DNA of 64,000 nt from Scyliorhinus canicula (lineage: Eukaryota), in the NCBI RefSeq assembly GCF_902713615.1, contig NC_052159.1:128980432-129044431 (forward strand), given 5' to 3'. Below, piece by piece: positions 2,271 to 49,106 of this stretch. The notes below the pieces were generated by a model that saw only the letters and a list, made by a program, of their open reading frames with translations, had not been told where the DNA came from and ran no database searches. The position numbers and the translations under genes were made by a program. How positions within the stretch are numbered: position 1 is the stretch's first letter; each line of letters begins with the position of its first letter.

Positions 2271-3203
2271 TGTAGCCATGCTGGCCACGCAAAATGGACA
2301 CTGAGCCAAACTAAAATGGAAGACTGCTGGGAAACAGACAGTTTAGCCAGAACAGCAGTCTGCAAAGAGCAGTTTGCATTCTGCAGCAGCAGAAACCAGT
2401 TTGGGCTCAGGTGAAAAGACCTTAGCTAGGTGCAAATGGCAAAACGCTTTGCATGCTAATGAGGCCATCAGACTTGAACACCCACACAATAGATACATTT
2501 GGTTCTGAATGGACACATTCTAATCAAGACCCAGACATCGAGGCACCAGAAACCTCCAAACAAAAGGACATAAGAAACGCCCCCTCCATCACGGAGACCC
2601 CCTCGCATTGGGGAATTAATCCAGTATCGATAAGAAATTGATCCAATAGGTAGAGCCCGCCCGAGAAGAGGGAAGGACAATGGAACCCCTATAAAAGATA
2701 GGGACCTCGTGTTGTCCGGTCTGTTAAACCCGTGCTCCGGCTCTGACTGACATCTCGCATCCTGACTCCAGCCGTTGAGCACCAGCCGCCGAAACCGTAA
2801 GTTCAACGCTCGCTACGCGATCCAAGCCCACTAGACTCCCAAGTACCAGAACGCTTGCTGAAGGCTGCAGACAAAACCAGGACGAAGGCCTCGTTCTCTG
2901 ACCTTGCCTGTTCCTGTTAGATAAGTATTCTGTTTGCTTAAGTTTAGTTATAGCTTAGTCTCTTAGTGTGCATGAGTATTTATTATAACTGTATAATAAA
3001 TATTGATCGTTTGAACTTTACTAATCGGTGTATCGTCTTTATTACTTTGAACTTGACCTTGGAATACTTGTGACGTTGCCTATACGGCAACTGGCGACTC
3101 CAGAGCTAAATAATTACATAGAACAGAGCCTAGCAGTGTTAAGCACACGTCGAACTCGGAGGCGTGTTAATACACTCCAATAAACGCGTTTTACGCCCAT
3201 AGT
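2271..3203 (+). repeat. 5' LTR (last 13 bp displaced by an inversion)
   Basis: Matches 11196-12127; the only difference seen by eye is TATAAAAG vs TATAAAG. Confidence 0.95.
2643..3000 (+). promoter_or_regulatory. LTR promoter and processing signals: CCAAT (2643), GC box (~2656), TATA (2690), splice donor GTAAGT (2797), AATAAA (2995)
   Basis: Motifs in canonical order; all also present in the diverged solo LTR at 48127-49106. Confidence 0.7.
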
Positions 3204-3398
3204 CGGATGTCGCCACTAAATGTTGCACGTTTTACTATGGGCGTAAAACGCGTTTATTGGAGTGTATTAACACGCCTCCGAGTTCGACGTGTGCTTAACA
3301 CTGCTAGGCTCTGTTCTATGTAATTATTTAGCTCTGGAGTCGCCAGTTGCCGTATAGGCAACGTCACAAGTATTCCAAGGTCAAGTTCAAAGTAATAA
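3039..3398. repeat. Inverted repeat: 165-bp arms (3039-3203, 3234-3398) with a 30-bp spacer holding the reversed LTR end and PBS
   Basis: 3204-3398 is the reverse complement of the U5 end + TTTAG + TGGCGACATCCG. Confidence 0.95.
3204..3215 (-). promoter_or_regulatory. Primer binding site TGGCGACATCCG (inverted relative to the provirus); primer tRNA uncertain, resembles Arg(UCU) with a 1-nt bulge
   Basis: On the minus strand it follows the LTR end GCAACA after a TTTAG spacer and starts with TGG. Confidence 0.7.
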
Positions 3399-3582
3399 GC
3401 GAAATTCGGAAGTGTGTTTAGTGCATGCGTACTAACAGGGCTGTAAGGTAAAACTGAAAGCTTTTTGTTGCGACAAACTTTCGGTAGTTTTGTGATCGGA
3501 AAATAGCGTAAGCCGTACCCTTTTCACGAAACACCACCCCAACAACCCCCTGTTCCAAATTATAAAAAGAGAGTCAGAGGAA

Positions 3583-5331
3583 ATGGCCATGCAGGCAATG
3601 GAACGTCTGATGGATCCAGCAAAGTTTGTGGTCGCAGCGACCAGCAGCAGTAGCAGAGTAGGCCAGTGTCCCACGTGGGAGCTGGAACTCCGCAAATATT
3701 TACAAGGAAAGGGATGGCCCCTTTGGAAAGAGTTTTGTGCAAATGAGGAGACAGGTCCCGGAAGTATAGGTCATACTTGGTGGGAGAACCTCTCTCAAAT
3801 ACACAAAAAGAGTTTAGGTAAAGCACGCAAGCCGATGGCGATTGTGTCCTGCTTGGCACAGTTGCGAGGCGCAGAGGAGGTCATCAGGACGCTCCGGGCA
3901 GATTTAGAGGAAAGGAACCGAATGAGTAAGGTCGATGTCAGGGACATCGAGAAAGAAAACCTGGAATTAAAAGGGAAGTTGGCAGAGAAGGGTAGAGAGG
4001 TGGATGATGCCAAGAGGGCTCACCAGTCTTGTCTAGCTCATCTGAACAGTTCCCAGACCCAGTATGAGAAAGCCTATCAGGACGTGCAACGTGCCGTTCT
4101 GATAAGACAGGAATCGGAAAAGCAGGTGGAGGCATTGCAGAGGCAATGTTCTGATCTCAAAGCAGCTTTGAGAGCACTCCATGCTGCAACGACCGAACAA
4201 AGACAAAGCACAGTTGACCACGCGAAATGCAGGAAACAGATTGCGGAATTGCAATCTCTGCTTTCGGTGCAGAATGGCTTCCAAAGCACCTTTGGAGCTC
4301 AGTTAGATGGGGAAAACGCCCCAGATTGGCAGGAATTAAGCGAGACAGCGCAGCGTTATGTTCAGGGAACATGTGCGCCAGCAGCTCAGCAGAAACGACA
4401 GGCACCCCAACCCCCCACAGCTCAGATCATAACCGCACCCATGAATCCCGTAACCACACAGAGGAAAGCCGAATCAGAAGGCGCCCCAGACATAACTTAC
4501 ACCACCCCTTTAACAGTAACCCAGCTAAGGGACGCTTGTGAAAAGATCACTCCGTTCCTCCCCACCGCAGACCCCCACCAGTTTTTCGCTAAAGTAAAAC
4601 AGCAGGCTACCATGTACGGCCTGGATGAGAGAGAGCAGGTTAAGCTCACCGTGCTGAGCTTAGACCAGAGTGTAGTGGCAGCCCTCCCCGACCCACAAAA
4701 CGTGGCAGGAGGCAGCCTAGAGGAGATGCACACTGCCATTTTAGATGCCATCGGGTACAATAGAGGTGACCCCGTAGAAGGATTGAATAAGTGCAGGCAG
4801 AAGAGATCCGAACACCCCACAGCATTCGCAGGAAGGCTGTGGATTCATTTCAGCGCAGTTTTCGGACAGCTAGATAGAGCGCATTTAACCCGCGAAAACA
4901 TGGTTAAGTGGACGCGCACAATTATCTCACACGCAACAGAAGCAGGACAGAGCGCTTGCAATAGTTACGACCCCTCAGAAGAGGCCCATAACGAAAAATG
5001 GGTCCTGAAAAGATTGTCCCGCGCTTGGGAGCAATCGCTTCAGGCAAAAGGAAAAGTTAGATCCCCAGAAGAGGCTCAGGCTGCTGCAGATATCCAAGCA
5101 GTCAGAGAGCACCAGAAGCCCGCATGGGTAAATGAAGGCAAGAGCAGCCCTCAGCAGAAAGGACAGGAATGCTATAACTGTGGACAGTTAGGGCATTGGG
5201 CAAAAGAGTGCCAAGCACCCCAGCGATCTCAGAGAGGCCAGCAGACAGGCACTCTGAACCGCAACAAAGCAAAACCCATCCACAATGTAGCAGTACAGTC
5301 AGGACCCACCAATGTGGACGAGACGAACTGA
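3583..5331 (+). CDS. gag: Gag polyprotein (N-terminal coiled coil, capsid with MHR-like motif, single CCHC zinc knuckle)
   Basis: 582-aa intact ORF; CYNCGQLGHWAKEC; MHR-like QKRSEHPTAFAGRL; heptad-rich region ~aa 95-230. Confidence 0.92.
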   Translation: MAMQAMERLMDPAKFVVAATSSSSRVGQCPTWELELRKYLQGKGWPLWKEFCANEETGPGSIGHTWWENLSQIHKKSLGKARKPMAIVSCLAQLRGAEEVIRTLRADLEERNRMSKVDVRDIEKENLELKGKLAEKGREVDDAKRAHQSCLAHLNSSQTQYEKAYQDVQRAVLIRQESEKQVEALQRQCSDLKAALRALHAATTEQRQSTVDHAKCRKQIAELQSLLSVQNGFQSTFGAQLDGENAPDWQELSETAQRYVQGTCAPAAQQKRQAPQPPTAQIITAPMNPVTTQRKAESEGAPDITYTTPLTVTQLRDACEKITPFLPTADPHQFFAKVKQQATMYGLDEREQVKLTVLSLDQSVVAALPDPQNVAGGSLEEMHTAILDAIGYNRGDPVEGLNKCRQKRSEHPTAFAGRLWIHFSAVFGQLDRAHLTRENMVKWTRTIISHATEAGQSACNSYDPSEEAHNEKWVLKRLSRAWEQSLQAKGKVRSPEEAQAAADIQAVREHQKPAWVNEGKSSPQQKGQECYNCGQLGHWAKECQAPQRSQRGQQTGTLNRNKAKPIHNVAVQSGPTNVDETN

Positions 5332-8300
5332 CGGTGTTCGGGCTCCCCCACTTGGGTCTGTGACACACTATGGGACTCATCAGGGAGGCCCGTAGTCACG
5401 GCAAAAGTCAAAGGGAAGCCCATAGAGTTACTGTGGGACACAGGAGGATCCCGCACCACCATTAACTCCACAACCACGGCACACGCAGACACGTGGCCGA
5501 CCACCTCCACCATCACACTTAGCGGGTTCACCGGACACTCGCAGCAGGGACACATTACAGCACCCATAGCAATTCAGCTAGGGAACATTAGCACAAGGCA
5601 CCCCGTAGTTTTAGTAAATCTTCCCCGGACAGCAGAGCACATCCTGGGGATAGATTTTATGAACGCTCACAGCTTGTCGTTCGACCCAGTGAACCAGTGT
5701 GTCTGGCGAATGGCGAGATCAGACAGAGCCCCAGCCACCCTCACAGTAGGAGACTACGCTAATCGGATTAGCGCAGTGGGAGAGTACTCATTCGACCTGA
5801 CTACACTCCACACCGACAGACAAATTAAGGCCCTACTGAACAAACACAGGACAGCATTTGCAAGTCACCGTCATGACTGTGGCAGAATGACTGGACAAGT
5901 TCATGTTACCGGACAGGACCCCCGACCGCAAAAGCAGTATAGATTTCCCCTCGAGGCAGAGGTGGAAATAGAAAAAGTTATAGGCAGCTTGTTGGACCAA
6001 GGTGTACTGAGAACGGTAGCCTCCACCAACAATGCCCCTATTTGGCCAGTGAGGAAGCCCGATGGATCATGGCGTCTGACCATCGATTATCGGGAACTCA
6101 ATAAAGTAACCCCCGCAGTAGCCCCAACGGTAGCTACTAGTCCCGAGACCATGCTCAAGCAGGGTCTCAACGCCAAGTACTTCACGGTATTGGACATCAG
6201 TAATGGATTCTGGTCAATACCATTGGCAAAAGCGTGCCAATACAAATTCGCATTCACTTTTAAAACACAGCAGTACACGTGGACATGCCTCCCACAAGGA
6301 TTCCACAATTCACCCTCCATTTTCCACCGACAGCTGGCAAGTGGATTAGAAAAATTTTCCCGACCCGAATGTCTGGTACAGTATGTAGACGACCTACTAC
6401 TGCAGACAGACACAAAGGCAGAGCACATTTCGCTTCTGGCCGAACTCCTGGAACTCTTAACTGAAATTGGCTGTAAAGTTAACCCGAAAAAGGCCCAAAT
6501 ATTGGAAAGTAAAGTGATGTATTTGGGATCAGTCATCACGCACGGCAAACGCGAGATCGAATTCAAAAGAATTGATTCGATTGTCAAATTGCCCCTTCCC
6601 CAGAATGTATCAGCCCTCCGGTCGTTTTTAGGACTGGTTGGCTATTGTCGGAACCACATAGACGGATGCGCGACAAAAGCCGCCCCACTTTCAGACCTCC
6701 TTAAGAAAGGAGCCCCCTGGGAATGGCTTCCGCAGCATACAGGCGCTGTGGAAGAGTTGAAACGAGCCCTTAGTGCAGCACCCGCGCTGCTAGTCCCCGA
6801 CCAACTTTCACCGTACGCAATAGAGGTAGCGAGCACCGATCTGACCCTCTCGGCCGTGTTGCTTCAGGAACGGCACGAGCAGCTAAGACCAGTGGCTTAT
6901 GCCTCCCGACTGTTAGACCCGGTAGAACAAGGATTTTCAGCCTGTGAGAGGCACCTCCTTGCTGTCTTCTGGGCAGTGCAGTATTTCTCATACATCACCG
7001 GACTCAACCCCATTACTATTCTGACCGAACATACACCCACACAGCTACTACTAGACGGTCGACTGAAGGACGGTTCAGTTAGCCAGATTAGGGCAGCTAG
7101 GTGGACCCTACTTTTACAAGGACGGGACATTACAGTAAAACGGACACGCACACACACATACTTAGCAGACAACCTCCAATACCCCGGACAGCCCCATGAC
7201 TGTGAAATTGTAGCTCCCCTGCATAACACAGGACCCTTTTTAGCAAAAACACCCTCCAGGAAGATAGGGAACCCGAAACAAAGCCCCCAGCCCACAGACA
7301 CGTGTGGACCCTTGAGGATTTATGTAGACGGTTCCTCCACAGTTTTAAATGGTGAGCGTATCACAGGATGCGGCATCTATGTAGAGGACGCGCAGGGGCG
7401 CGCTCTCGAAGAGATAGCTCTTAAGTTACCAGGTCACTTAGGCGCGCAGGCAGCAGAGCTAGCAGCCATAGCGTACATAGTGGACCACCCCGATTCTTTC
7501 CCCAGCCCAGCGGACATATATTCAGACAGCTTATATGTATGCAATAGCCTAACAGATTTTCTGCCCCTGTGGAGGACACGAGGTTTTGTCTCCGCAGACG
7601 GAAAACCCCTTCCATCAGCCCCCTTACTCCAGCATATCCTAGAGAAAGCGAAGGACAGGACCTTCGGCATTATAAAAGTTCGCAGCCACCATAGGTCATC
7701 ACCCCCTGGGAATGTAAAAGCCGACGCGTTGGCTAAGGCAGGTTCTAGGAGAGGACACTTATGGACCCCCCCAGCTAGCGCACCAGCTAGCGCCCCTGTG
7801 AGCGCAGTCCAAGTCCCACAGACTGATATTAAAGATCTCGTGGCAGCACAGAAACAGGACGGAGACCTCAGGGAGGTTTTCAAGGGAAACTTTGTGCCTG
7901 CTTACGAGCACTTTAAACACGCACTGACCACACATGAGGGTGTGATCATTAAGGACCAACTTTATGTGGTCCCACAGCAGGACAGGAATCAGATGATTGC
8001 CTTGTTCCATGACGGACACGGGCATCAGGGAATTGATGCAACAACGAGGCACCTCAGGCAACTCTGTTGGTGGCCTAATCTCAGGAATGATGTAACGCAC
8101 TACATAGAGAATTGCCTGATTTGTGCTCAGAATAACCCGGAGCGGTATTCTAAGAAAGCACAACTTCGGCATACTCGCCCAGTTAACGGCCCTTGGACAA
8201 ACCTCCAGATCGACTTTATAGGTCCATTGCCCCCTTGCAGGAATGGCTATAAATACGTTCTGGTGGTGATAGATACCTTTACCAAGTGGGTAGAGGCATT

Positions 8301-9558
8301 TCCCTCACGAACAAATACAGCAAAGACAGCTGCAAAGATCCTGACCCACCACATCTTCACGAGATGAGGTTTACCCCGAAGTATCGATTCGGACCAGGGA
8401 TCTCACTTTACAGGACGGGTCATGAGGAACGTCCTGACAATATTCGGAATCAAACAGAACTTCCATATTGCGTATCATCCACAGTCCAGCGGGATTGTGG
8501 AGTGCATGAATCGGACCCTAAAAACTACCCTTAGGAAAATGGTTCAAGAGAATAATTCCACATGGGATTCAGTGCTCCCATTTGCACTTATGTTCATAAG
8601 GAACACTGTCTCCACATCGACAGGATACACACCACACACACTCATGACCGGACGCCCTATGAAAGGTACAGAATTCCTTTTAGGACTGGACATGACAAGC
8701 CCCGAAGTGACGGCCCTCACACATGAAAAGGCAGTTAAAGATCTAGTTGAGACTGTGAGGTCTGCACAGCTCGCAGCCGCAGTCCAGCTAGGGAAACGCC
8801 GACAGCAACGGACTGCCTGTTTCAATAAGACCGTCCACACCACAGAATTCCAGGTTGGGCAACAGGTAATGTTATCTGTTTATAACCCCAGCAGTTTTTT
8901 GGCTCCAAAATATTCCGGTCCCTACTCAATTTCGGACAAAATTAGCCCCTCCGTTTACAGAATAAAATATCCTAATGGGAAGACCGCGTGGTTCCATATA
9001 AACCAGTTAAAGGCATATGGAACACAGGCCAACCATGCTCACCATGTCCTGCTGGATGCAGCAGAACACTACACCCCGCCCACCAGAGACACTTTTCCAC
9101 CATCCCCCTCACAGACCAGTTCATCAACGGACTCGCCCACGACTCCGCCCACAGACCACAACAGACCACGCCCCGACACGCCCACAAGCTGCCACAGCAG
9201 AGACAGCAGGACTGACACTGACTCTGAAGACAGCGACACCACACAGCCATACAGCCCACACTGCACCAACTACGACCCCGACTCCAGTGACCCCATGGAA
9301 GTCACCTACCTCAAATATCCAGAACCACCACCCAACCCCGACTACCCCGACAACACACTCGACACTACACAATGGCACAGGGACAATTCATACAGACTTG
9401 TCCGCAATGACGAGAGTGACCCCCGGTCACACAATTCCAAAATAGCATGCCTGATCCACACAAGGGTGTGGGATCCGGGAGAGCAGGACGACACGGTGTC
9501 TGACTCCCGACACGGCAACCCCTTTGTGACCCTGTTCACAGAGGCAGAATCAAAGTGA
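5332..9558 (+). pseudogene. pol: Pol (PR-RT-tether-RNase H-IN), in frame with gag via UGA; one premature stop at 8365-8367
   Basis: LLWDTGGS (~5431); LPQGF and YVDD (6382); degenerate RH (IEVAS/ERHLLA/TEH); intact RH (YVDGS at 7321, AELAA, YSDS, GNVKAD); IN HHCC, LQIDFIG, DSDQG, GIVE, GPY; ORFs starting at 3583, 5659 and 8422 share one frame. Confidence 0.93.
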
Positions 9559-10510
9559 GGTGTCCAGATGATGCAAGATAGGAGTCGTTTGAGGGAAACG
9601 ATGTCCTTTCTGATGGAACCTGCACGTATGTTTGTCTTCGTTTTATGTTTGTTTGTCTCAGGATTGTACATTGTTCAGCTGGAGGATGGACATCTTCTTT
9701 TCAGCTGAAAAGATTGTGACCACCTCACATACACGTTAGCTTGTCCGCAGATACTTTTGAGAACTTCGGTTTGATTGGAGATCTTTTCCAAAGTTGTAAC
9801 ACTTGTGACAGCCTGGTGAGCAGCTCACCGTATCGTCTAAAATATCTGAAGACCAGCTCATGTCCTCAGTTGGAGCATCTTGGCTCCCATGGTTTTTTTT
9901 TTAAGGTGCCCCTCTATTCGGCGAAATAGAGACTGCAAGTCATGGTCAACACATTCGTACCCGTTTTTTCCAGGTTACTCAGGCAGTGGACAAACGGCAC
10001 TGAGGACCCGCCCTGTCTGAGAACCCACCCTTGGTCAGCCAAGCTCGGGTATGGCACAGCACGCCCTACCCGGGGATCCCATCCAACTCGTACCCGTAGC
10101 GGCCCATACGCAACTCATTCGGATGTTTGTTTCCAAGTTTGTTTTCATTTTACGTTAGGTAGCCCTTCGGCCGCCATCCCACATGCTATTTACATCCGGG
10201 AACATTCGGATGGTAAATCAGCAAAGCCTGCGAGACGGCTCGCAGAAGGAAGGATTGTTAGGTGTATGCTGGTCTTTAAATTCGCTTTTTGAAAAAAAAA
10301 AATGAGGGGAGTCACAGGGTGTGACTTAGCCAGTCATTTTAAAGGGTCAATTGGGTTTTGAAAGACAGATGCACTAACAAGTAAAGGTCTTAAACTGTGT
10401 ATTGACAGATACTGTGCTTGATCCCAAAGGTTTCAAAGGACGAGACAGAAGTCGAAGCCAGGATTGTCAATACCGGAGGAAGAAGGAAGAGAAAGAAGAA
10501 GAACAGCAAA

Positions 10511-10864
10511 ATGATGGAAGCCCACTTATTACTGTTTAATGTCATATGTATATGTGTGGAAACAAGACACGTTTCCCCCACAACCCCCACCGTAAATGTT
10601 AGTACAACAAACCCCCAGTGCTCAGCTCTGATCAGCGAGGTTCAGACCTGGTGTACTAAATTCATGACGTGGTACTCCATGTCCTACATAATCGAATCAC
10701 TGTTGGTGATCGCGATCCTCATCGTCCTAGTGCAGACCCTCAGGTTGAGGAAATGGAAGAGGAGAGCCTCTCGTTCCAGCACCTCACCCATCTATAGAGT
10801 GCAATCCCCCATCTTCGGATTCCACCAAACCCCTCAACCCCTCACTGATTACAACACTCTGTAA
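10511..10864 (+). CDS. 117-aa small single-pass membrane protein at the env position (FAST-like candidate)
   Basis: ATGATGG in good Kozak context; hydrophobic N-terminus, NVS sequon, C-x10-C, TM IIESLLVIAILIVLVQTL, RLRKWKRR, C-terminal YNTL; upstream branch point ACTAAC (10373) and acceptor CAG (10406-10408). Confidence 0.75.
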   Translation: MMEAHLLLFNVICICVETRHVSPTTPTVNVSTTNPQCSALISEVQTWCTKFMTWYSMSYIIESLLVIAILIVLVQTLRLRKWKRRASRSSTSPIYRVQSPIFGFHQTPQPLTDYNTL

Positions 10865-11185
10865 ATAAAATTCAGCCATGTATTATATTGTTCCATACTC
10901 GACTGCCGAGTTGGGAAGTGTGATGTTGTGGTGTGAATGGTTAAGATTTTAGAGTGATTAAATGTTTAAGTTAAGGTTAAGGTTAATAGTGATAGGTAGA
11001 GGTTCCCAATTGTAGTAATGCATGTCCCCTTTGACATAGGGCCAAGTAGAAATGTTAGTTAAAATTTTTTTTCTCTTCTTCCCATAGTTTAGAACAGAGT
11101 AGAACAGGAACTGGCAAGAGGTCAGAACACAAGGAAGGCAAAGTACATAGGTGATCCTTCACAATAGTATGATTGTGAGGATCAC

Positions 11186-11195
11186 AAGGAGGGAA
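11186..11195 (+). promoter_or_regulatory. Polypurine tract
   Basis: AAGGAGGGAA abutting the TG of the 3' LTR. Confidence 0.85.
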
Positions 11196-12140
11196 TGTAG
11201 CCATGCTGGCCACGCAAAATGGACACTGAGCCAAACTAAAATGGAAGACTGCTGGGAAACAGACAGTTTAGCCAGAACAGCAGTCTGCAAAGAGCAGTTT
11301 GCATTCTGCAGCAGCAGAAACCAGTTTGGGCTCAGGTGAAAAGACCTTAGCTAGGTGCAAATGGCAAAACGCTTTGCATGCTAATGAGGCCATCAGACTT
11401 GAACACCCACACAATAGATACATTTGGTTCTGAATGGACACATTCTAATCAAGACCCAGACATCGAGGCACCAGAAACCTCCAAACAAAAGGACATAAGA
11501 AACGCCCCCTCCATCACGGAGACCCCCTCGCATTGGGGAATTAATCCAGTATCGATAAGAAATTGATCCAATAGGTAGAGCCCGCCCGAGAAGAGGGAAG
11601 GACAATGGAACCCCTATAAAGATAGGGACCTCGTGTTGTCCGGTCTGTTAAACCCGTGCTCCGGCTCTGACTGACATCTCGCATCCTGACTCCAGCCGTT
11701 GAGCACCAGCCGCCGAAACCGTAAGTTCAACGCTCGCTACGCGATCCAAGCCCACTAGACTCCCAAGTACCAGAACGCTTGCTGAAGGCTGCAGACAAAA
11801 CCAGGACGAAGGCCTCGTTCTCTGACCTTGCCTGTTCCTGTTAGATAAGTATTCTGTTTGCTTAAGTTTAGTTATAGCTTAGTCTCTTAGTGTGCATGAG
11901 TATTTATTATAACTGTATAATAAATATTGATCGTTTGAACTTTACTAATCGGTGTATCGTCTTTATTACTTTGAACTTGACCTTGGAATACTTGTGACGT
12001 TGCCTATACGGCAACTGGCGACTCCAGAGCTAAATAATTACATAGAACAGAGCCTAGCAGTGTTAAGCACACGTCGAACTCGGAGGCGTGTTAATACACT
12101 CCAATAAACGCGTTTTACGCCCATAGTAAAACGTGCAACA
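11196..12140 (+). repeat. 3' LTR
   Basis: TG...CA termini, preceded by PPT, followed by TSD ACTG. Confidence 0.95.
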
Positions 12141-12589
12141 ACTGACATGTCCAATGGTCCCTGGGCTAGGACACAAGCAGTGTACGCTGCAGCGCTTTTG
12201 GTTATCCAAATAAACTGCAGTTCAAATGAAGCCTGGCCTTGGTGGCATGGCTACACTTTCCAAGCCCACCTTGTTATGGCTGTTCAAAATTTTATATGCT
12301 TCAATCAAGACATCTCTCACTCTTCTAAACTCCAGTGGAAACAAGCCAGTCTGCCCAACTATTCATCATTTCAGGTGTCAGCTCTACTCTGAATCGATGT
12401 TAGATGTTAACATCTAACAGACATTAGCTACATGCATGTAATGCCTCCATAAAGGTGGAGGCTGGCATGCTTCACATCAGAAACATGTGAAAACACAGTG
12501 GATGCCATTTTGGATCTTTCATAGCATCCAAATAACAAACACCACCAAGCCCAATTTCTCACCCAAAGGGGGGAAATTTATGAATGTAA

Positions 12590-19630: not shown

Positions 19631-19975
19631 TCGTAGAATTTACAGTGCAGAAGGAGGCCATTCAGCCCATCGAGTCTGCACCGGCTCTTGGAAAGAGCAC
19701 CCTACCCAAGGTCCACACCTCCACCCTATCCCCATAACCCAGTAACCCCACCCAACACTAAGGGCAATTTTGGACACTAAGGGCAATTTATCATGGTCAA
19801 TCCACCTAACCTGCATATCTTTGGACTGTGGGAGGAAACCGGAGCAGCCGAAGGAAACTCACACAGACATGGGGAGAACGTGCAGACTCCACACAGACAG
19901 TGACCCAAGCCGAGAATCGAACCTGGGACCCTGGAGCTGTGAAGCAATTGTGCTAACCACAATGCTACCGTGCTC
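19631..19975 (-). mobile_element. HE1-type SINE inserted in Rex1
   Basis: Full SINE; TSD CCCACTAT at 19623-19630 and 19976-19983. Confidence 0.9.
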
Positions 19976-21127
19976 CCCACTATGGTCGTATCGTCAACAA
20001 ACTTGGAGATGGAGTTGGAACCAAGTTTTGCCACACAGTCGTATGCGTACAGGGAGTAGAGTAGGGGGCTAAGTACGCAGCCTTGCGGGGCCCCGATGAC
20101 TATTGTGAAGGAGGTGTTGTTGTTCATTCTTACTGATTGTGGTCTGTTGGTCAGAAAATCGAGGATCCAGTTGCAGAGTGGAGAGCCAAGTCCTAGGTTT
20201 TGGATCTTTGATATGAGCTTGGCTGGGATTATAGTGTTGAAGGTGGAGCTGTAGTCAATAAAAAGAAGTCTGATGTAGGAGTCTGTGTTTTCGAGATGCT
20301 CTAGGGATGAGTGTAGGGCCAGGGAAATGGTGTCTGATGTGGACCGGTTGCAATGGTATGCGAATTGCAGTGGATCATGGCGTTCTGGGAGTATGTAGGT
20401 GATGCGTTTCATGATCAACCTCTCGAAGCACTTCATTACGATTGATGTCAGGACCACTGTATGGTAGTCTTTGAGGCACGTTGCCTGGTTTTTCTTTGGT
20501 ACCGGTATGATGGTGGTCTTCTTGAAGCAGGAGGGGACCTCGGAGTGGAGTAGGGACAGGTTAATGATGTCTGTCACTACCTCTGTCAGTTGGTCCACGC
20601 AGGCTCTGAGTAAATGACCAGGGATCCCGTCCGGGCCCGTCGCCTTCCGAGGTTTCTCTTTCAGGAAGGCTGATCTGACTTCGGAAGCTGTGATGGTGGG
20701 TATGGGTGAGTTATGGGCTGCTGGGGCACTCGACAGCAGATTGTTAGTTACCTACTCGAACCGAGCATAGAATGCATTGATTTCATCGGGGAGGGGTGCA
20801 CTGCTGCCAGAAATACTGCTCGGCTTCGCTTTGTAGCCCGTTATGTTGTTTAGTCCTTGCTACAATCGCCGAGAGCCTGTCTGTGACTCTAGCTTAGTTT
20901 GATATTCTCTCTTGGCATCTCGGATGGCTTTGCGGAGGTCGTACCTGGATTTCTTGTATATGTCAGGGTCGTCTGCCTTGAACGCCTCAAATCTATCCTT
21001 CAGTAAGGAGTCAATCTCGCGATTGAGCCAAGGTTTCTGGTTAGGGAATGTACGTACTACTTTCTTTGGCATGCAGTCGTCCACACATTTGCTGATGAAG
21101 TCTGTGACGGTGGTGGCGTACTCATTT

Positions 21128-22811
21128 TTTTTTTTTTATAAATGTTTTTATTCAGTTTTCGTATTTTATATTGAACAAATTACAAATTGTTAGGAGAGAG
21201 AAAAAAAAAACAAACAAAAACAAACACGCAAAAATTAACATACATATTTACAGGTAAGCATCTTCGTAGTAGTAACTGCGCCCCCCCCCCCCCCCTCCCC
21301 CCCTCAACATGTTTATTTAGCTTGGTTTTGGGCCTTAGCTAGCCATCGAACCCCCGTAACGAACCTGTAGCCCCCCCCCCCCCTCCCGCTACCTTCCCCC
21401 GACTATTCTTCCTCTTGTACATTGGCCACAAATAGGTCCCGGAACAGTTGCATGAATGGCTCCCACGTTCTGTGGAAGCCGTCGTCCGACCCTCGGATGG
21501 CAAATTTGATTTTCTCCATTTGGAGAGATTCCGAGAGGTCGGACAGCCAGTCCGCAGCTCTGGGCGGTGCTGCTGACCGCCAGCCAAACAGGATTCTACG
21601 GCGGGCGATCAGGGAGGCAAAGGCAAGGGCATCCGCCCTCCTCCCCAGGAATAGATCTGGCTGTTCTGAAACCCCGAAGACCGCCACTATCGGGCATGGC
21701 TCCACCCTCACTCCCACCACTTTGGACATTACCTCGAAGAAGGCTGTCCAGTACTCCACGAGTCTGGGGCAGGACCAGAACATGTGGGCGTGGTTGGCCG
21801 GGCCTCTTTGGCACCGTTCACATCTGTCTTCCACCTCCGGGAAGAACCTACTCATACGGGTTCTTGTTAAGTGGGCTCTATGTACCACTTTTAGTTGCGT
21901 CAGGCTGAGCCTTGCGCACGTGGAGGTGGAGTTGACCCTATGCAGTGCTTCGCTCCAGAGTCCCCACCCGATCTCCATCCCCAGGTCGTCCTCCCATTTC
22001 CTCCTTGTTGCGTCCAGTACGGTGTCGTCCCTATCTACCAGTCGGTCATACATGTCACTACAGTTCCCTTTCTCTAGGATACTTGCGTCCAGTAGGTCTT
22101 CCAGTAGTGTCTGTCGTGGCGGTTGTGGGTACGTCCTTGTCTCCTTTCGTAGGAAGTTTTTGAGCTGCAGGTAATGTAGCTCGTTCCCCCCAGCTAGCTG
22201 AAATTTCTCTGTCAGTTCGTCCAGTGTTGCGATCCTGTCGTCCGTGTATAGGTCCCTGACTGTCAGTGTCCCCCCGTCCTGCCTCCACCTTTTGAAGGTG
22301 GCGTCGGTCAGTGCTGGTTTGAACCTATGGTTGTTGCAGATGGGAGCCCTGTTCGACATTTTGGTCAGGCCAAGTTGCTGCCGCAGTTGGTTCCAGGATT
22401 GGAGGGTGGCTGTCACCACTGGGCTGCTGGAGTGTTTTTTGGGTGGGGATGGGAGTGCTGCCGTGGCGAGGGCCCGGAGGGAGGTTCCCATGCAGGAGGC
22501 CTCCTCCGCACGCACCCACTCAGCTTCTGGCTCCTGGATCCATCCCCTTACTCGCTCGGCTGTTGCTGCCCAGTGGTAGAATTGTAGATTCGGGAGGGCT
22601 AACCCTCCCCTGGTTTTTGTTTTTTGTAAGACCTTCTTTGGGATCCTAGCATTTTTACCCCCCCATACGAACGCCATGATGAGTTTGTCCAGCGCTTTGA
22701 AAAAGGCCTTGGGGATGTAGATCGGAATGGATCTAAACAGGAAGAGGAACCTGGGCAGTACGTTCATTTTGATCGTCTGAACTCTCCCCGCGAGGGAGAG
22801 CGGGAGTGTGT
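21128..22811 (-). mobile_element. 5'-truncated young L1-clade LINE
   Basis: Poly(A) tail; TSD TGGTGGCGTACTCATTT at 21111 and 22812; open ORF2 C-terminus. Confidence 0.92.
21403..22811 (-). CDS. L1 ORF2 C-terminal part (uninterrupted, 5'-truncated)
   Basis: SLAGRVQTIKMNVLPRFLFLF; CERC-x7-HMFWSC cysteine-rich motif. Confidence 0.8.
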
Positions 22812-22849
22812 TGGTGGCGTACTCATTTAACTTGGTCACTGAGACGCTT

Positions 22850-23970
22850 AAAAGACAGGAAGTTAAAGTAGATGTACTGGAGCAGGTTGAGGAAGGAAGT
22901 AGTTCGAGACATTAACCTAGTGGGGAGATGTTTACATTTCTGAAAGTTCTTCCAAAATTTGAGTAAAAGGATGTGGAAGCTTTTCTTTAAAAAGGTAGTT
23001 AAACAAATGGAATGACCTGAATAAATTTCAACATTACTTTTACAATGAAGGCTGGTACAGACAGCTACTGAGTTGGATGCATCATTGTCGGAAGAGGTAT
23101 CTGTAGATCATGATATAGTCAAGAAAGCAATCCTAGTGTATATGAGTTGGTCCCTGAGGCATAGAGGCGGAAATTTCAAAACGCAGGAAAATAGCCTGGA
23201 CAAACACATATTGAATTTGCAAGGGTGAAGCAAAATCATTTTGATTGCTGGATACGGGCATTAAAGAGAGACCAGATTTGTTTCCATCACCCTTTTAAAC
23301 CAGAGAAGGAAAGAAGGTGGAAAAAAACAAATAGTCAGGGAAAAGATGGAACAGTTGGGAATGAAGAGGAAATGTCACCTCAGATCGAAAGGGAAGGTGC
23401 TAAGGGTGGAAGTGACATTCAGAGAACGAAGTGTTTCCATTGTAATAAAGTGAGACATGTGAGGGCAGATTGTTGGAAATTAAATGGAAGACTAATTGCA
23501 ATAGTATGAAAGGAAGCATCTGAAAAAGAAACGGCTGCTCAAACTGCAGCAGTGGTGAAGGTGAAATATGCTCTTTCAGAGTCAGTGAGAAAAGGGGGAT
23601 AGACCTTAAGATAGTTCAGATAATTATTTAAGTATTGGAGACGTACTGGAGAAGGGAATCAAGATATTGGAGATTCAGGATGTTTTGTTCCAAAGGGAGA
23701 AGGTTTCCCTTACTCATCCAAGAAAATATGTAAACAAATTAAAATTTTGAAAGTTACAGGAGCAGATCAATCATTGATGATAGCTGATGACACAATTTGT
23801 ATTCCAGGAAGTTCTATGAAGGAAAAAGTATTAATAAGGGATATTACATGAAGGGATGACCTGTTTCTTTGTGTCAAGGTAATTTAAGAATTTTGTAGAT
23901 TGAATTGTTATCATGGGAAATTTCCTATTGGAGGAATAGATTTCATCCTTGGTAATAACTTCGCTTGCGG
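22850..23970 (+). pseudogene. Degenerate Gypsy (Gmr1-like) gag-protease remnant
   Basis: LPKFE.KDVEAF, YELVPEA, CFHCNKVRHVRADC knuckle, PIGGIDFILGN. Confidence 0.65.
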
Positions 23971-48126: not shown

Positions 48127-49106
48127 TGTAGCCACCTAAAATGGATGCTGAGCTACAAAAATAGGCCAAGCGCTAATACTGCTGGGAAACAGACAGTTTA
48201 GCCAGAACAGCAGTCTGCAAAGAGCATTTTGCATTCTGCAGCAGCAGAAACCAGTTTGGGCTCAGGTGAGAAGACCTTAGCTAGGTGCAAATGGCAAAAC
48301 GCTTTGCATGCTAATGAGGCAATCAGACCTGAACACCCACACAATAGATACATTTGATTCTGAATGGACACATTTTAATCAAGGCCCAGACATCGAGGCA
48401 CCAGAAACCTCCAAACAAAAGGGCATAAGAAACGCCCCCCCCATCACGGAGACCCCCTCGCATTGGGGAATTAAAACAGTATCGATGAGGAATTGACCCA
48501 ATAGGTAGAGCCCGCCCAAGAAGAGGGAAGGACAATGGAACCCCTATAAAAGATAGGGACCTCGTGTTGTCCGGTCTGTTTTGTGCTCCGGCTTAACTTC
48601 GGTCAAGGTCTGTTTTTCCGTGCTCCGGCTCTGACCACGACCTTGAAGATCCACTCTGACTCCAGCCGTTGAGCACCAGCCGCCGAACCGTAAGTGCCAG
48701 TACGACGCTCGCTACGCGAACTAAGCCCGCTAGAACCCCCAGTGACCAGAACGCTTGCTGAAGGTTGCAGCCCAAGACCAGGACGAAGGCCTCGCTCCCT
48801 GACCTTGCCTGTTCCTGTTAGATAAGTATTCTGATTACTTTAGTTTAGTCATTGCTTAGTCTCTTAGTGTGTGCATGAATATTTATTATTACTGTATAAT
48901 AAATATTATCGTTTGGACCTTACTAATCGGTGTATCGTCTTTATTACTTTGAACTTGACCTTGGAATACTAGTGACGTTGTCTATACGGCAACTGGCGAC
49001 TCCTAAAGCTGAATAAATACATAAGACAGAGCCTAGTGGTGTTAAGCACTTGGAAGTTAATACACCCCAATAAACGCGTTTTACGCCCATAGTAAAACGT
49101 GCAACA
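48127..49106 (+). mobile_element. Solo LTR of a sister subfamily of the 2271-12140 element
   Basis: TGTAGCC...GTGCAACA; colinear with the provirus LTR with scattered substitutions and an R-region insertion; TSD CGTC at 48123-48126 and 49107-49110. Confidence 0.95.

Follow-up and report, generated by a model that had tools for sequence, protein, structure and literature searches.

Env-less endogenous retroviruses (ERVs) are usually seen as cell-confined retrotransposons that have lost their entry gene. A young endogenous provirus of the catshark Scyliorhinus canicula raises the question of why a small gene for a surface-type membrane protein stands where env would be expected, and what this protein does. 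The provirus occupies positions 2271-12140 of the analysed window, a stretch of 64,000 nucleotides (NC_052159.1, 128,980,432 to 129,044,431, forward strand), and is flanked by a 4-bp target-site duplication (ACTG, 2267-2270 and 12141-12144). Its 5' LTR (2271..3203, plus strand), whose last 13 nt lie inside an adjoining inverted block, and its 3' LTR (11196..12140, plus strand; 945 nt, TG...CA, with a TATA box at 11615 and AATAAA at 11919) are 99.9% identical over 933 nt, and loose poly(A) ends of RNA reads on the plus strand mark a polyadenylation site about 750 nt inside the LTR. The polypurine tract was read directly from the sequence at 11185..11195 (plus strand). According to the original prediction, no env-sized open reading frame (ORF) lies between the pol stop and this tract, and this is borne out: the pol stop ends at 9558, and the longest ATG frames that follow encode 116 aa (9942-10292) and 117 aa (10511-10864).

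The window copy itself is defective, since its integrase carries an in-frame stop (8365-8367) and its LTR end and primer-binding site (PBS) are rearranged. An inversion at 3204..3398 (minus strand), specific to this copy, contains an LTR end and a tRNA-Arg(UCU)-type PBS, replaces about 150 nt of leader and yields a perfect 165-bp inverted repeat (3039-3398), which either originated by fold-back during reverse transcription or is an assembly artefact. A 165-bp hairpin as a family trait was rejected because the other scored copies have a normally oriented PBS. The PBS of the element matches a genomic tRNA-Arg(TCT) gene; in loci L053-L085 and L092-L126 it lies 5 nt past the LTR, frequently with an extra base, and varies widely around tRNA-Arg(UCU) isodecoders, and in L146 the tRNA copy extends past 18 nt. 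Elsewhere in the window, a solo LTR of a sister subfamily (48127-49106; 87% identical) is flanked by a 4-bp target duplication (CGTC), and broken RT frames of non-LTR type (RVT_1, zf-RVT) lie on the minus strand at 19777-22911.

The gag frame (3496..5331, plus strand; 611 aa from stop to stop) contains one CCHC knuckle and ends in TGA followed by CGG, and pol (5332..9558, plus strand) continues in frame with protease, RT (LPQG, YVDD), tether, RNase H and integrase. This TGA-CGG junction (5329-5334) is present in 31/33 copies, the two exceptions being pol-less derivatives; we take it to resemble the UGA-C readthrough context of RNA viruses, in contrast to the UAG of gammaretroviruses. Neither Gly2 nor a PPxY, PTAP/PSAP or YPxL motif was found in the window-copy Gag. 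The element is a true retrovirus, with the domain order PR-RT-tether-RNase H-IN, LPQG/YXDD motifs (here CLPQGF and YVDD), a tRNA PBS, LTRs and an RT within the retrovirus clade. The top PDB matches are foamy-virus Pol and, second, MLV RT, and the proteins closest to the element in the databases, with an RT identity of 54-58%, are Pols from frogs and the coelacanth that bear the name 'NYNRIN-like'. RT trees, which were quick trees built without a curated reference set, join it to these Pols (SH-aLRT 87-92) and separate it from gamma-like rows and lokiretroviruses, and on this basis it is probably of class III grade. One frog Pol gene model (P0001) ends in a signal-like stretch and a segment that appears Ig-like by eye, with no Ig match in Pfam; this C-terminus may represent either a host exon fused to Pol or another accessory membrane gene, in a sister element.

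Comparison with described retroviruses reveals both shared and differing features. Dual RNase H is shared with frog and coelacanth class III-like ERVs, ERV-L and XtERV-S; ERV-L is also env-less, and in XtERV-S, too, a TGA separates gag from a pol in the same frame, according to the available text of PMC8278194. In the accessible descriptions, however, XtERV-S and ERV-L have YIDD and a dUTPase and lack the CCHC knuckle, whereas the shark element has YVDD and one CCHC; XtERV-S has a full env, and no small transmembrane (TM) gene is described for XtERV-S, ERV-L or the frog and coelacanth class III-like ERVs. Lokiretroviruses, as presented in the available part of PMC7947760, also possess dual RNase H and have fish and amphibian hosts, but their RTs read RCPFGY/TPFGY and they carry an F-like Env; lokiretrovirus identity was rejected on the RT motif and the separate RT clade. 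A genome search with PF00523 (F-like Env) returned 0 matches but, with none in any control either, is uninformative. Among retroviruses of cartilaginous fish, ERV-Spuma.0-Sca, annotated with an 866-nt LTR, a 2.9-kb pol and a 1.3-kb env in the accessible portion of PMC10699275, was rejected by layout (945-nt LTR and 4.2-kb pol here), and the CmiERVs had the presence of env as their defining criterion (PMC4422223, as far as its available text goes), in contrast to the env-less element described here.

The absence of env extends beyond the window copy. Of the first 100 matches listed, sixteen loci, all on one contig, were chosen for their unusual RT codons without regard to the small ORF; 12/16 belong to the lineage of the element and 4/16 to other ERV groups. 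Eleven of the 12 lineage loci fall in one clade (SH-aLRT 100), L138 being too short for the tree. A homologue of the small protein was found 0.8-2.4 kb past pol in 8/12 of these older loci, in which the longest frame past pol encodes 137-232 aa and none is env-sized, and the remaining four are interrupted or cut off within the fetched stretch. A full env of which the small ORF might be a deletion remnant was not found in any clade member examined. The clade is env-less among these members, a rare env-bearing one being possible given the small one-contig sample. The four loci of other ERV families (L139-L142), among them L140 with a TLV_coat env and L141 with long unassigned frames after pol, gave no match to the small-protein profile. 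Across copies, LTR pair identity ranges from 94% to 100%, which indicates successive waves of amplification, the latest of them very recent. A degenerate 10-codon motif of the small ORF has 2,004 genomic matches with many synonymous variants (control 0), and a wider RT motif has 3,185, other ERV families included.

The gene in the env slot (10511..10864, plus strand) encodes a type I membrane protein of 117 aa, in which every feature read by the original prediction is present. A signal-peptide-like segment (residues 1-19, hydrophobic at 4-17, judged on hydropathy only) is followed by a Thr/Pro stalk with an NVS sequon at N29 (residues 20-36), an amphipathic aromatic helix that includes FMTWYSMSY and C37-x10-C48 (residues 37-58), a TM (residues ~59-77), the polybasic stretch RLRKWKRRASR (residues 78-88) and a disordered tail with Tyr95 and a terminal YNTL. 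The TM also holds an invariant Glu62, which the first reading had overlooked. A TM combined with a polybasic patch occurred in 0/55 other window ORFs of 80-200 aa and in 0/1000 shuffles of 9559-11195. The AlphaFold2 (AF2) model (mean pLDDT 66) consists of an N-terminal helix, a disordered stalk, a single helix spanning residues 36-89 and a disordered tail (pLDDT ~50), with C37 and C48 on one helix at moderate confidence; the hydrophobic moment reaches 1.2-1.6 across residues 35-53. Homodimer prediction scored 0.02, which is evidence neither way.

Conservation was assessed in 66 coding sequences taken from 69 fetched loci and the window, leaving out L095 (insertion), L097 (region absent) and L099 and L100 (5' halves of split loci). 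The best 150 of 5,325 candidate copies, a biased sample, are 99-100% identical and free of stops. The ORF is not disrupted in other copies: 64/66 encode at least 110 aa, and open full-length members have 111-124 aa and one TM by hydropathy and AF2. Among 16 aligned natural copies, TWC48, WYSxSY, E62, LL, A68, QTxRxxKWxxR, S89 and Y95 are invariant, as are R78, K81, W82 and R85 of the basic patch (16/16 rows). The sequon is present in 66/66 copies and 4/6 older rows. Two proposed signatures proved to be local: the cystine loop, read as a FAST-like trait, has its C37-C48 spacing in 60/66 mostly young copies, but C37 is absent from older families and C48 alone is invariant, and the terminal YNTL is confined to subfamilies (33/66 copies). 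Gly2 occurs in 0/66 copies, and a possible palmitoylation Cys in the inner TM or tail in 31/66, the window copy not being among them. A basic extension at the N-terminus, whose frame is open in L112-L124, was set aside because younger and older families have other or closed frames there; it presumably recalls Rem/Rec-type signal peptides.

The youngest copies have LTR pairs that are 99-100% alike, and an intact frame might therefore reflect nothing but youth, the ORF being a neutral remnant or chance ORF. This reading, to which the missing spliced RNA described below also lends itself, is refuted by the substitution pattern and has next to no probability left. Comparisons with 14 diverged copies gave a dN/dS of 0.14-0.30 in 14/14 cases (Fisher p 3e-10 to 5e-6), calculated without the 10 codons used for copy selection and with pairs that are not independent; dS among diverged copies reaches 0.5-1.0, with dN at most 0.22. 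By region, dN/dS is 0.11 in the TM, 0.14 in the basic patch, 0.17 in the tail, 0.21 in the ectodomain helix, 0.37 in the signal and 0.64 in the stalk, compared with 0.05-0.10 for RT and 0.21-0.37 for the pol C-terminus. Moreover, the core of the protein is kept in families with an RT identity of 79-87%, whereas the adjoining 116-aa frame, once considered as a second accessory ORF, was rejected since it is frameshifted in other subfamilies. The small ORF is thus a real gene, old and intact, under purifying selection that is strongest on the TM, basic patch and tail. Because selection on a provirus gene acts during element replication, its product aids the replication or spread of the element.

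Expression was examined in two raw RNA runs of unspecified tissue mapped on copy L056 (1,624 and 5,157 reads). In run X24, the ORF bin has a depth of 48.7 in the sense direction and 2.0 in the opposite one. Depth is 3-10 across most of pol and rises to 33-62 from just past a candidate splice acceptor, a pyrimidine tract and CAG at 9694..9704 (plus strand) found in 11/14 subfamily representatives. This step is compatible with a subgenomic RNA, but 3' bias and internal A-tract priming could also yield it. The candidate major donor is GTAAGT in the R region (2797..2802, plus strand; counterpart at 11721 in the 3' LTR), and GTRAGT occurs at most 170 nt past the TATA box in 58/62 LTRs, as well as in the older loci L136 and L143. 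A leader donor after the PBS was rejected, as it is not kept in older subfamilies. Upstream of the ORF, copy comparison reveals a branch-point-like CACTAAC and an acceptor CAG (10372..10408, plus strand) that precedes a purine-rich leader, CACTAAC being present in 59/66 copies and the CAG at 10408 in 64/66. These flanking splice-type signals suggest splicing; a donor-acceptor joint was absent from the 7 joints listed for the 6,781 mapped reads, and three junction probes for spliced retrocopies gave 0 matches each, which does not demonstrate that such retrocopies are absent. Between the two candidate acceptors, a non-coding block (10001..10300, plus strand) is more conserved than the small ORF itself, with 80-97% identity per 100 nt compared with 45-86% at 9801-9900. 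Its folding z-scores are weak (-0.1 to -2.6) and the overlapping frame is not kept; it is probably a cis-acting RNA or DNA element, with export, packaging, IRES or promoter functions as candidates.

Searches with the single small-protein sequence found no homologues. A search with the 16-row alignment gave 4 matches, every one a Scyliorhinus gene model, and a profile run against 1.84 billion representatives gave 5, of which three are models of the catshark sORF, one is a host gene model with the ORF at its end and one is a repeat artefact. The named homologues come from S. canicula and S. torazame only, in keeping with the shark origin given in the original prediction, and none was found outside catsharks in these searches. 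The PDB sequence search returned a single match (E 0.35) and the profile no solved structure, Pfam gave nothing at its cut-off, and Foldseek against viral models gave 0 matches at E 0.001 or better. Viral and metagenome contigs contained no close relative, with one match at 28%. Below the cut-off, Pfam pointed to TMEM156 (14/16 rows, best E 0.003), K1 and adenovirus E3A, and the ESM Atlas offered leads only (best 0.89), its neighbours TMIE, influenza M2 (0.85) and TMEM213 all scoring below 0.9 with a recognition value below 2300.

One origin that these searches bear upon is an ancient internal deletion of Env that left its signal peptide, membrane-proximal region, anchor and tail, the remnant being kept for particle assembly or release, or for potentiating fusion in the manner of truncated VSV G, whose stem behaviour is general background here. 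A place in the env slot, a signal peptide and a sequon, an aromatic helix next to the membrane and the splice-type signals are the remains expected of an env skeleton, and truncated VSV G serves as a binding-defective, fusion-competent protein in the available text of PMC3520013. However, the profile found no longer viral glycoprotein among the 1.84 billion representatives and no match in the four other ERV loci, the TLV_coat-bearing one included, and Gag has no budding motifs. Such a descent is unlikely, and it is compatible with the cell-to-cell function considered below.

The original prediction compared the protein to the reovirus FAST fusogens, a likeness that holds in part. FAST proteins (p10, p13, p14, p15, p16 and p22) have fewer than 200 aa and a single TM, and the accessible part of PMC3701659 gives size, TM, basic cluster, amphipathic motif and disordered tail as their general criteria; the shark protein shares the small size, the one TM, the juxtamembrane basic cluster, the amphipathic helix and the disordered endodomain. 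In FAST proteins the TM lies at most 40 aa from the N-terminus, compared with 58 aa here for the uncleaved protein and ~39 if the predicted signal is removed. FAST proteins use neither signal peptide nor glycosylation (PMC3952855, in its available text). The original prediction had itself cautioned that they lack a cleavable signal peptide, and on this point, by hydropathy and the sequon, the shark protein differs from them. It also differs in fatty acylation, with its absent Gly2 and inconstant inner-TM or tail Cys, and in the p10-type cystine loop, C37 being missing in older families. No link to FAST proteins was found by sequence, profile, feature or fold. The shark protein is not classed with the FAST proteins, although it may work in a FAST-like way.

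A closer functional parallel is offered by sORF2 of the MDG1 group (412, Mdg1, Stalker), env-less LTR elements in which sORF2 sometimes lies downstream of pol and has been proposed to serve Env-independent cell-to-cell transfer (10.1101/2025.03.14.642691, main text). Both are short selected single-TM ORFs in env-less LTR elements, with an amphipathic ectodomain and a polybasic juxtamembrane stretch. By that account, the insect proteins belong to Metaviridae, have 63-107 aa with an ectodomain of ~30 aa, are mostly N-myristoylated and are made from unspliced RNA, whereas the shark protein belongs to a vertebrate retrovirus and has a predicted signal peptide, a sequon and a TM Glu but no Gly2. 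It fits the published sORF2 screen (60-210 aa, one TM, N-out, MGxxxS/T, ectodomain 10-50 aa, as given there) in size and TM and is not retained by it, MGxxxS/T being absent. No link to sORF2 was found by sequence, profile, feature or fold. The main text of 10.1101/2025.03.14.642691 mentions no vertebrate retrovirus and no 'shark', its supplements possibly listing further hosts, and searches of the largely open-access literature, Repbase apart, found no small TM gene reported to replace env in retroviruses of sharks or other vertebrates.

By analogy with sORF2, the protein is tentatively read as a cell-surface protein for Env-independent cell-to-cell transfer, an assignment that falls somewhat short of even probability. 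Replicating lineages of the env-less clade would long have needed a small membrane protein in the env slot. The protein would be made from a subgenomic RNA joining the R-region donor to a 3' acceptor, enter the ER through its signal peptide and be glycosylated on its stalk, and the basic patch would direct it to the plasma membrane. Capsids would assemble in the cytoplasm while the protein remained in the membrane of the producer cell, where its aromatic amphipathic ectodomain helix and Tyr tail may help to open local cell-cell contacts. Cytoplasmic capsids could then cross such contacts and pass, for instance, from somatic cells of the gonad into germ cells, in line with the MDG1 sORF2 proposal, and the protein would act like sORF2 or FAST proteins without FAST family membership. 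The fuller scenario, in which Env was replaced by a myristoylation-free, signal-peptide-bearing mini-fusogen and the germline was invaded by capsid transfer in a family of at least about 2,000 copies, some with identical LTRs, is possible but rather doubtful.

Several observations favour cell-to-cell transfer: the consistent purifying selection and the homologues in older RT-chosen loci; the general FAST traits, including the short mature ectodomain expected after signal cleavage; the window-copy Gag without myristoylation Gly or late domain, which fits non-budding capsids; the conserved splice-type signals on either side of the ORF; and the sORF2 precedent, including its post-pol cases (main text of 10.1101/2025.03.14.642691). 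Conversely, the lack of Gly2, the signal-peptide-like N-terminus and the sequon of 66/66 copies are all unlike FAST, neither the cystine loop nor YNTL is conserved, the mapped RNA reads contained no splice junction, and many non-fusogenic small membrane proteins share the architecture. The invariant TM Glu would speak for binding to a particular membrane partner and against lipid mixing. Moreover, env-less ERVs reach high copy number without an entry protein (PMC10536682, available text), class III elements commonly lack Gag myristoylation (PMC8278194, likewise), and sORF2 fusion itself was not reproduced in cell culture according to the main text of 10.1101/2025.03.14.642691.

The invariant Glu62, Cys48 and Tyr95 draw attention to a different role, that of a host-modulating accessory protein which would bind a host membrane protein via Glu62 and the WYSxSY face and then traffic, degrade or decoy it, while the element retrotransposes inside germ cells. 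Models for such a protein are Vpu, adenovirus E3 proteins and signalling-dead mimics of charged-TM immune adaptors, and a glycosylated stalk with a signal peptide is usual in host-modulating accessory proteins. In the YIIESLL stretch we see a likeness to the YxxD-x-xL helix found in FcR-gamma and CD3-zeta, and the sub-cut-off Pfam matches to TMEM156, K1 and adenovirus E3A point in the same direction. Env-less amplification, in the available text of PMC10536682, requires no fusogen. The profile matched no adaptor family or solved structure, however, and a host-modulating role leaves the exact env-slot position throughout the env-less clade unexplained, so that it appears somewhat improbable. 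A viroporin or interference factor, which would form an oligomeric channel through Cys48 and a polar TM face or would limit re-entry or copy number, is very unlikely: the polar TM residues Glu62, Ser63 and Gln75, the one invariant Cys and the influenza M2 neighbour in the Atlas are in its favour, but this neighbour is a lead only, given its low Atlas score and recognition value, and there is no fold match.

That an env-less clade of shark retroviruses carries a new accessory gene under selection is well shown, and a mini-fusogen role for the product of this gene is a plausible proposal. An env-less retrovirus clade has retained a surface-type protein through many amplification waves, under selection near the level of its own pol C-terminus. 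If cell-to-cell transfer is true, spread without Env is not confined to the Metaviridae of insects but reaches Retroviridae and vertebrates, and screens that demand a myristoylation motif overlook a whole class. If the protein is host-modulating instead, retroviruses still gain a new accessory gene, and one from a host that stands at the base of adaptive immunity. Being tiny, intact and transcribed, the gene lends itself readily to testing.

Further observations concern derivatives of the gene and of the element. An S. torazame HEPACAM2-like gene model (isoform X2, P0082) has at its end the TM and tail of the small protein as found in an older family, possibly an exonisation that gave a host Ig protein a viral anchor, although this is a gene model only. 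L103 (G000:C3:120356600-120362700) is a 2.5-kb mini-element composed of LTR, PBS, 3' region, small ORF and LTR, whose deletion occurred at a 2-nt microhomology and not at a splice junction. L080, L085 and L114 are pol-less derivatives of ~6 kb that have kept gag and the small ORF, and in L080 and L085 the C-terminus of gag is new, carries a second CCHC knuckle and is hydrophobic at its end.
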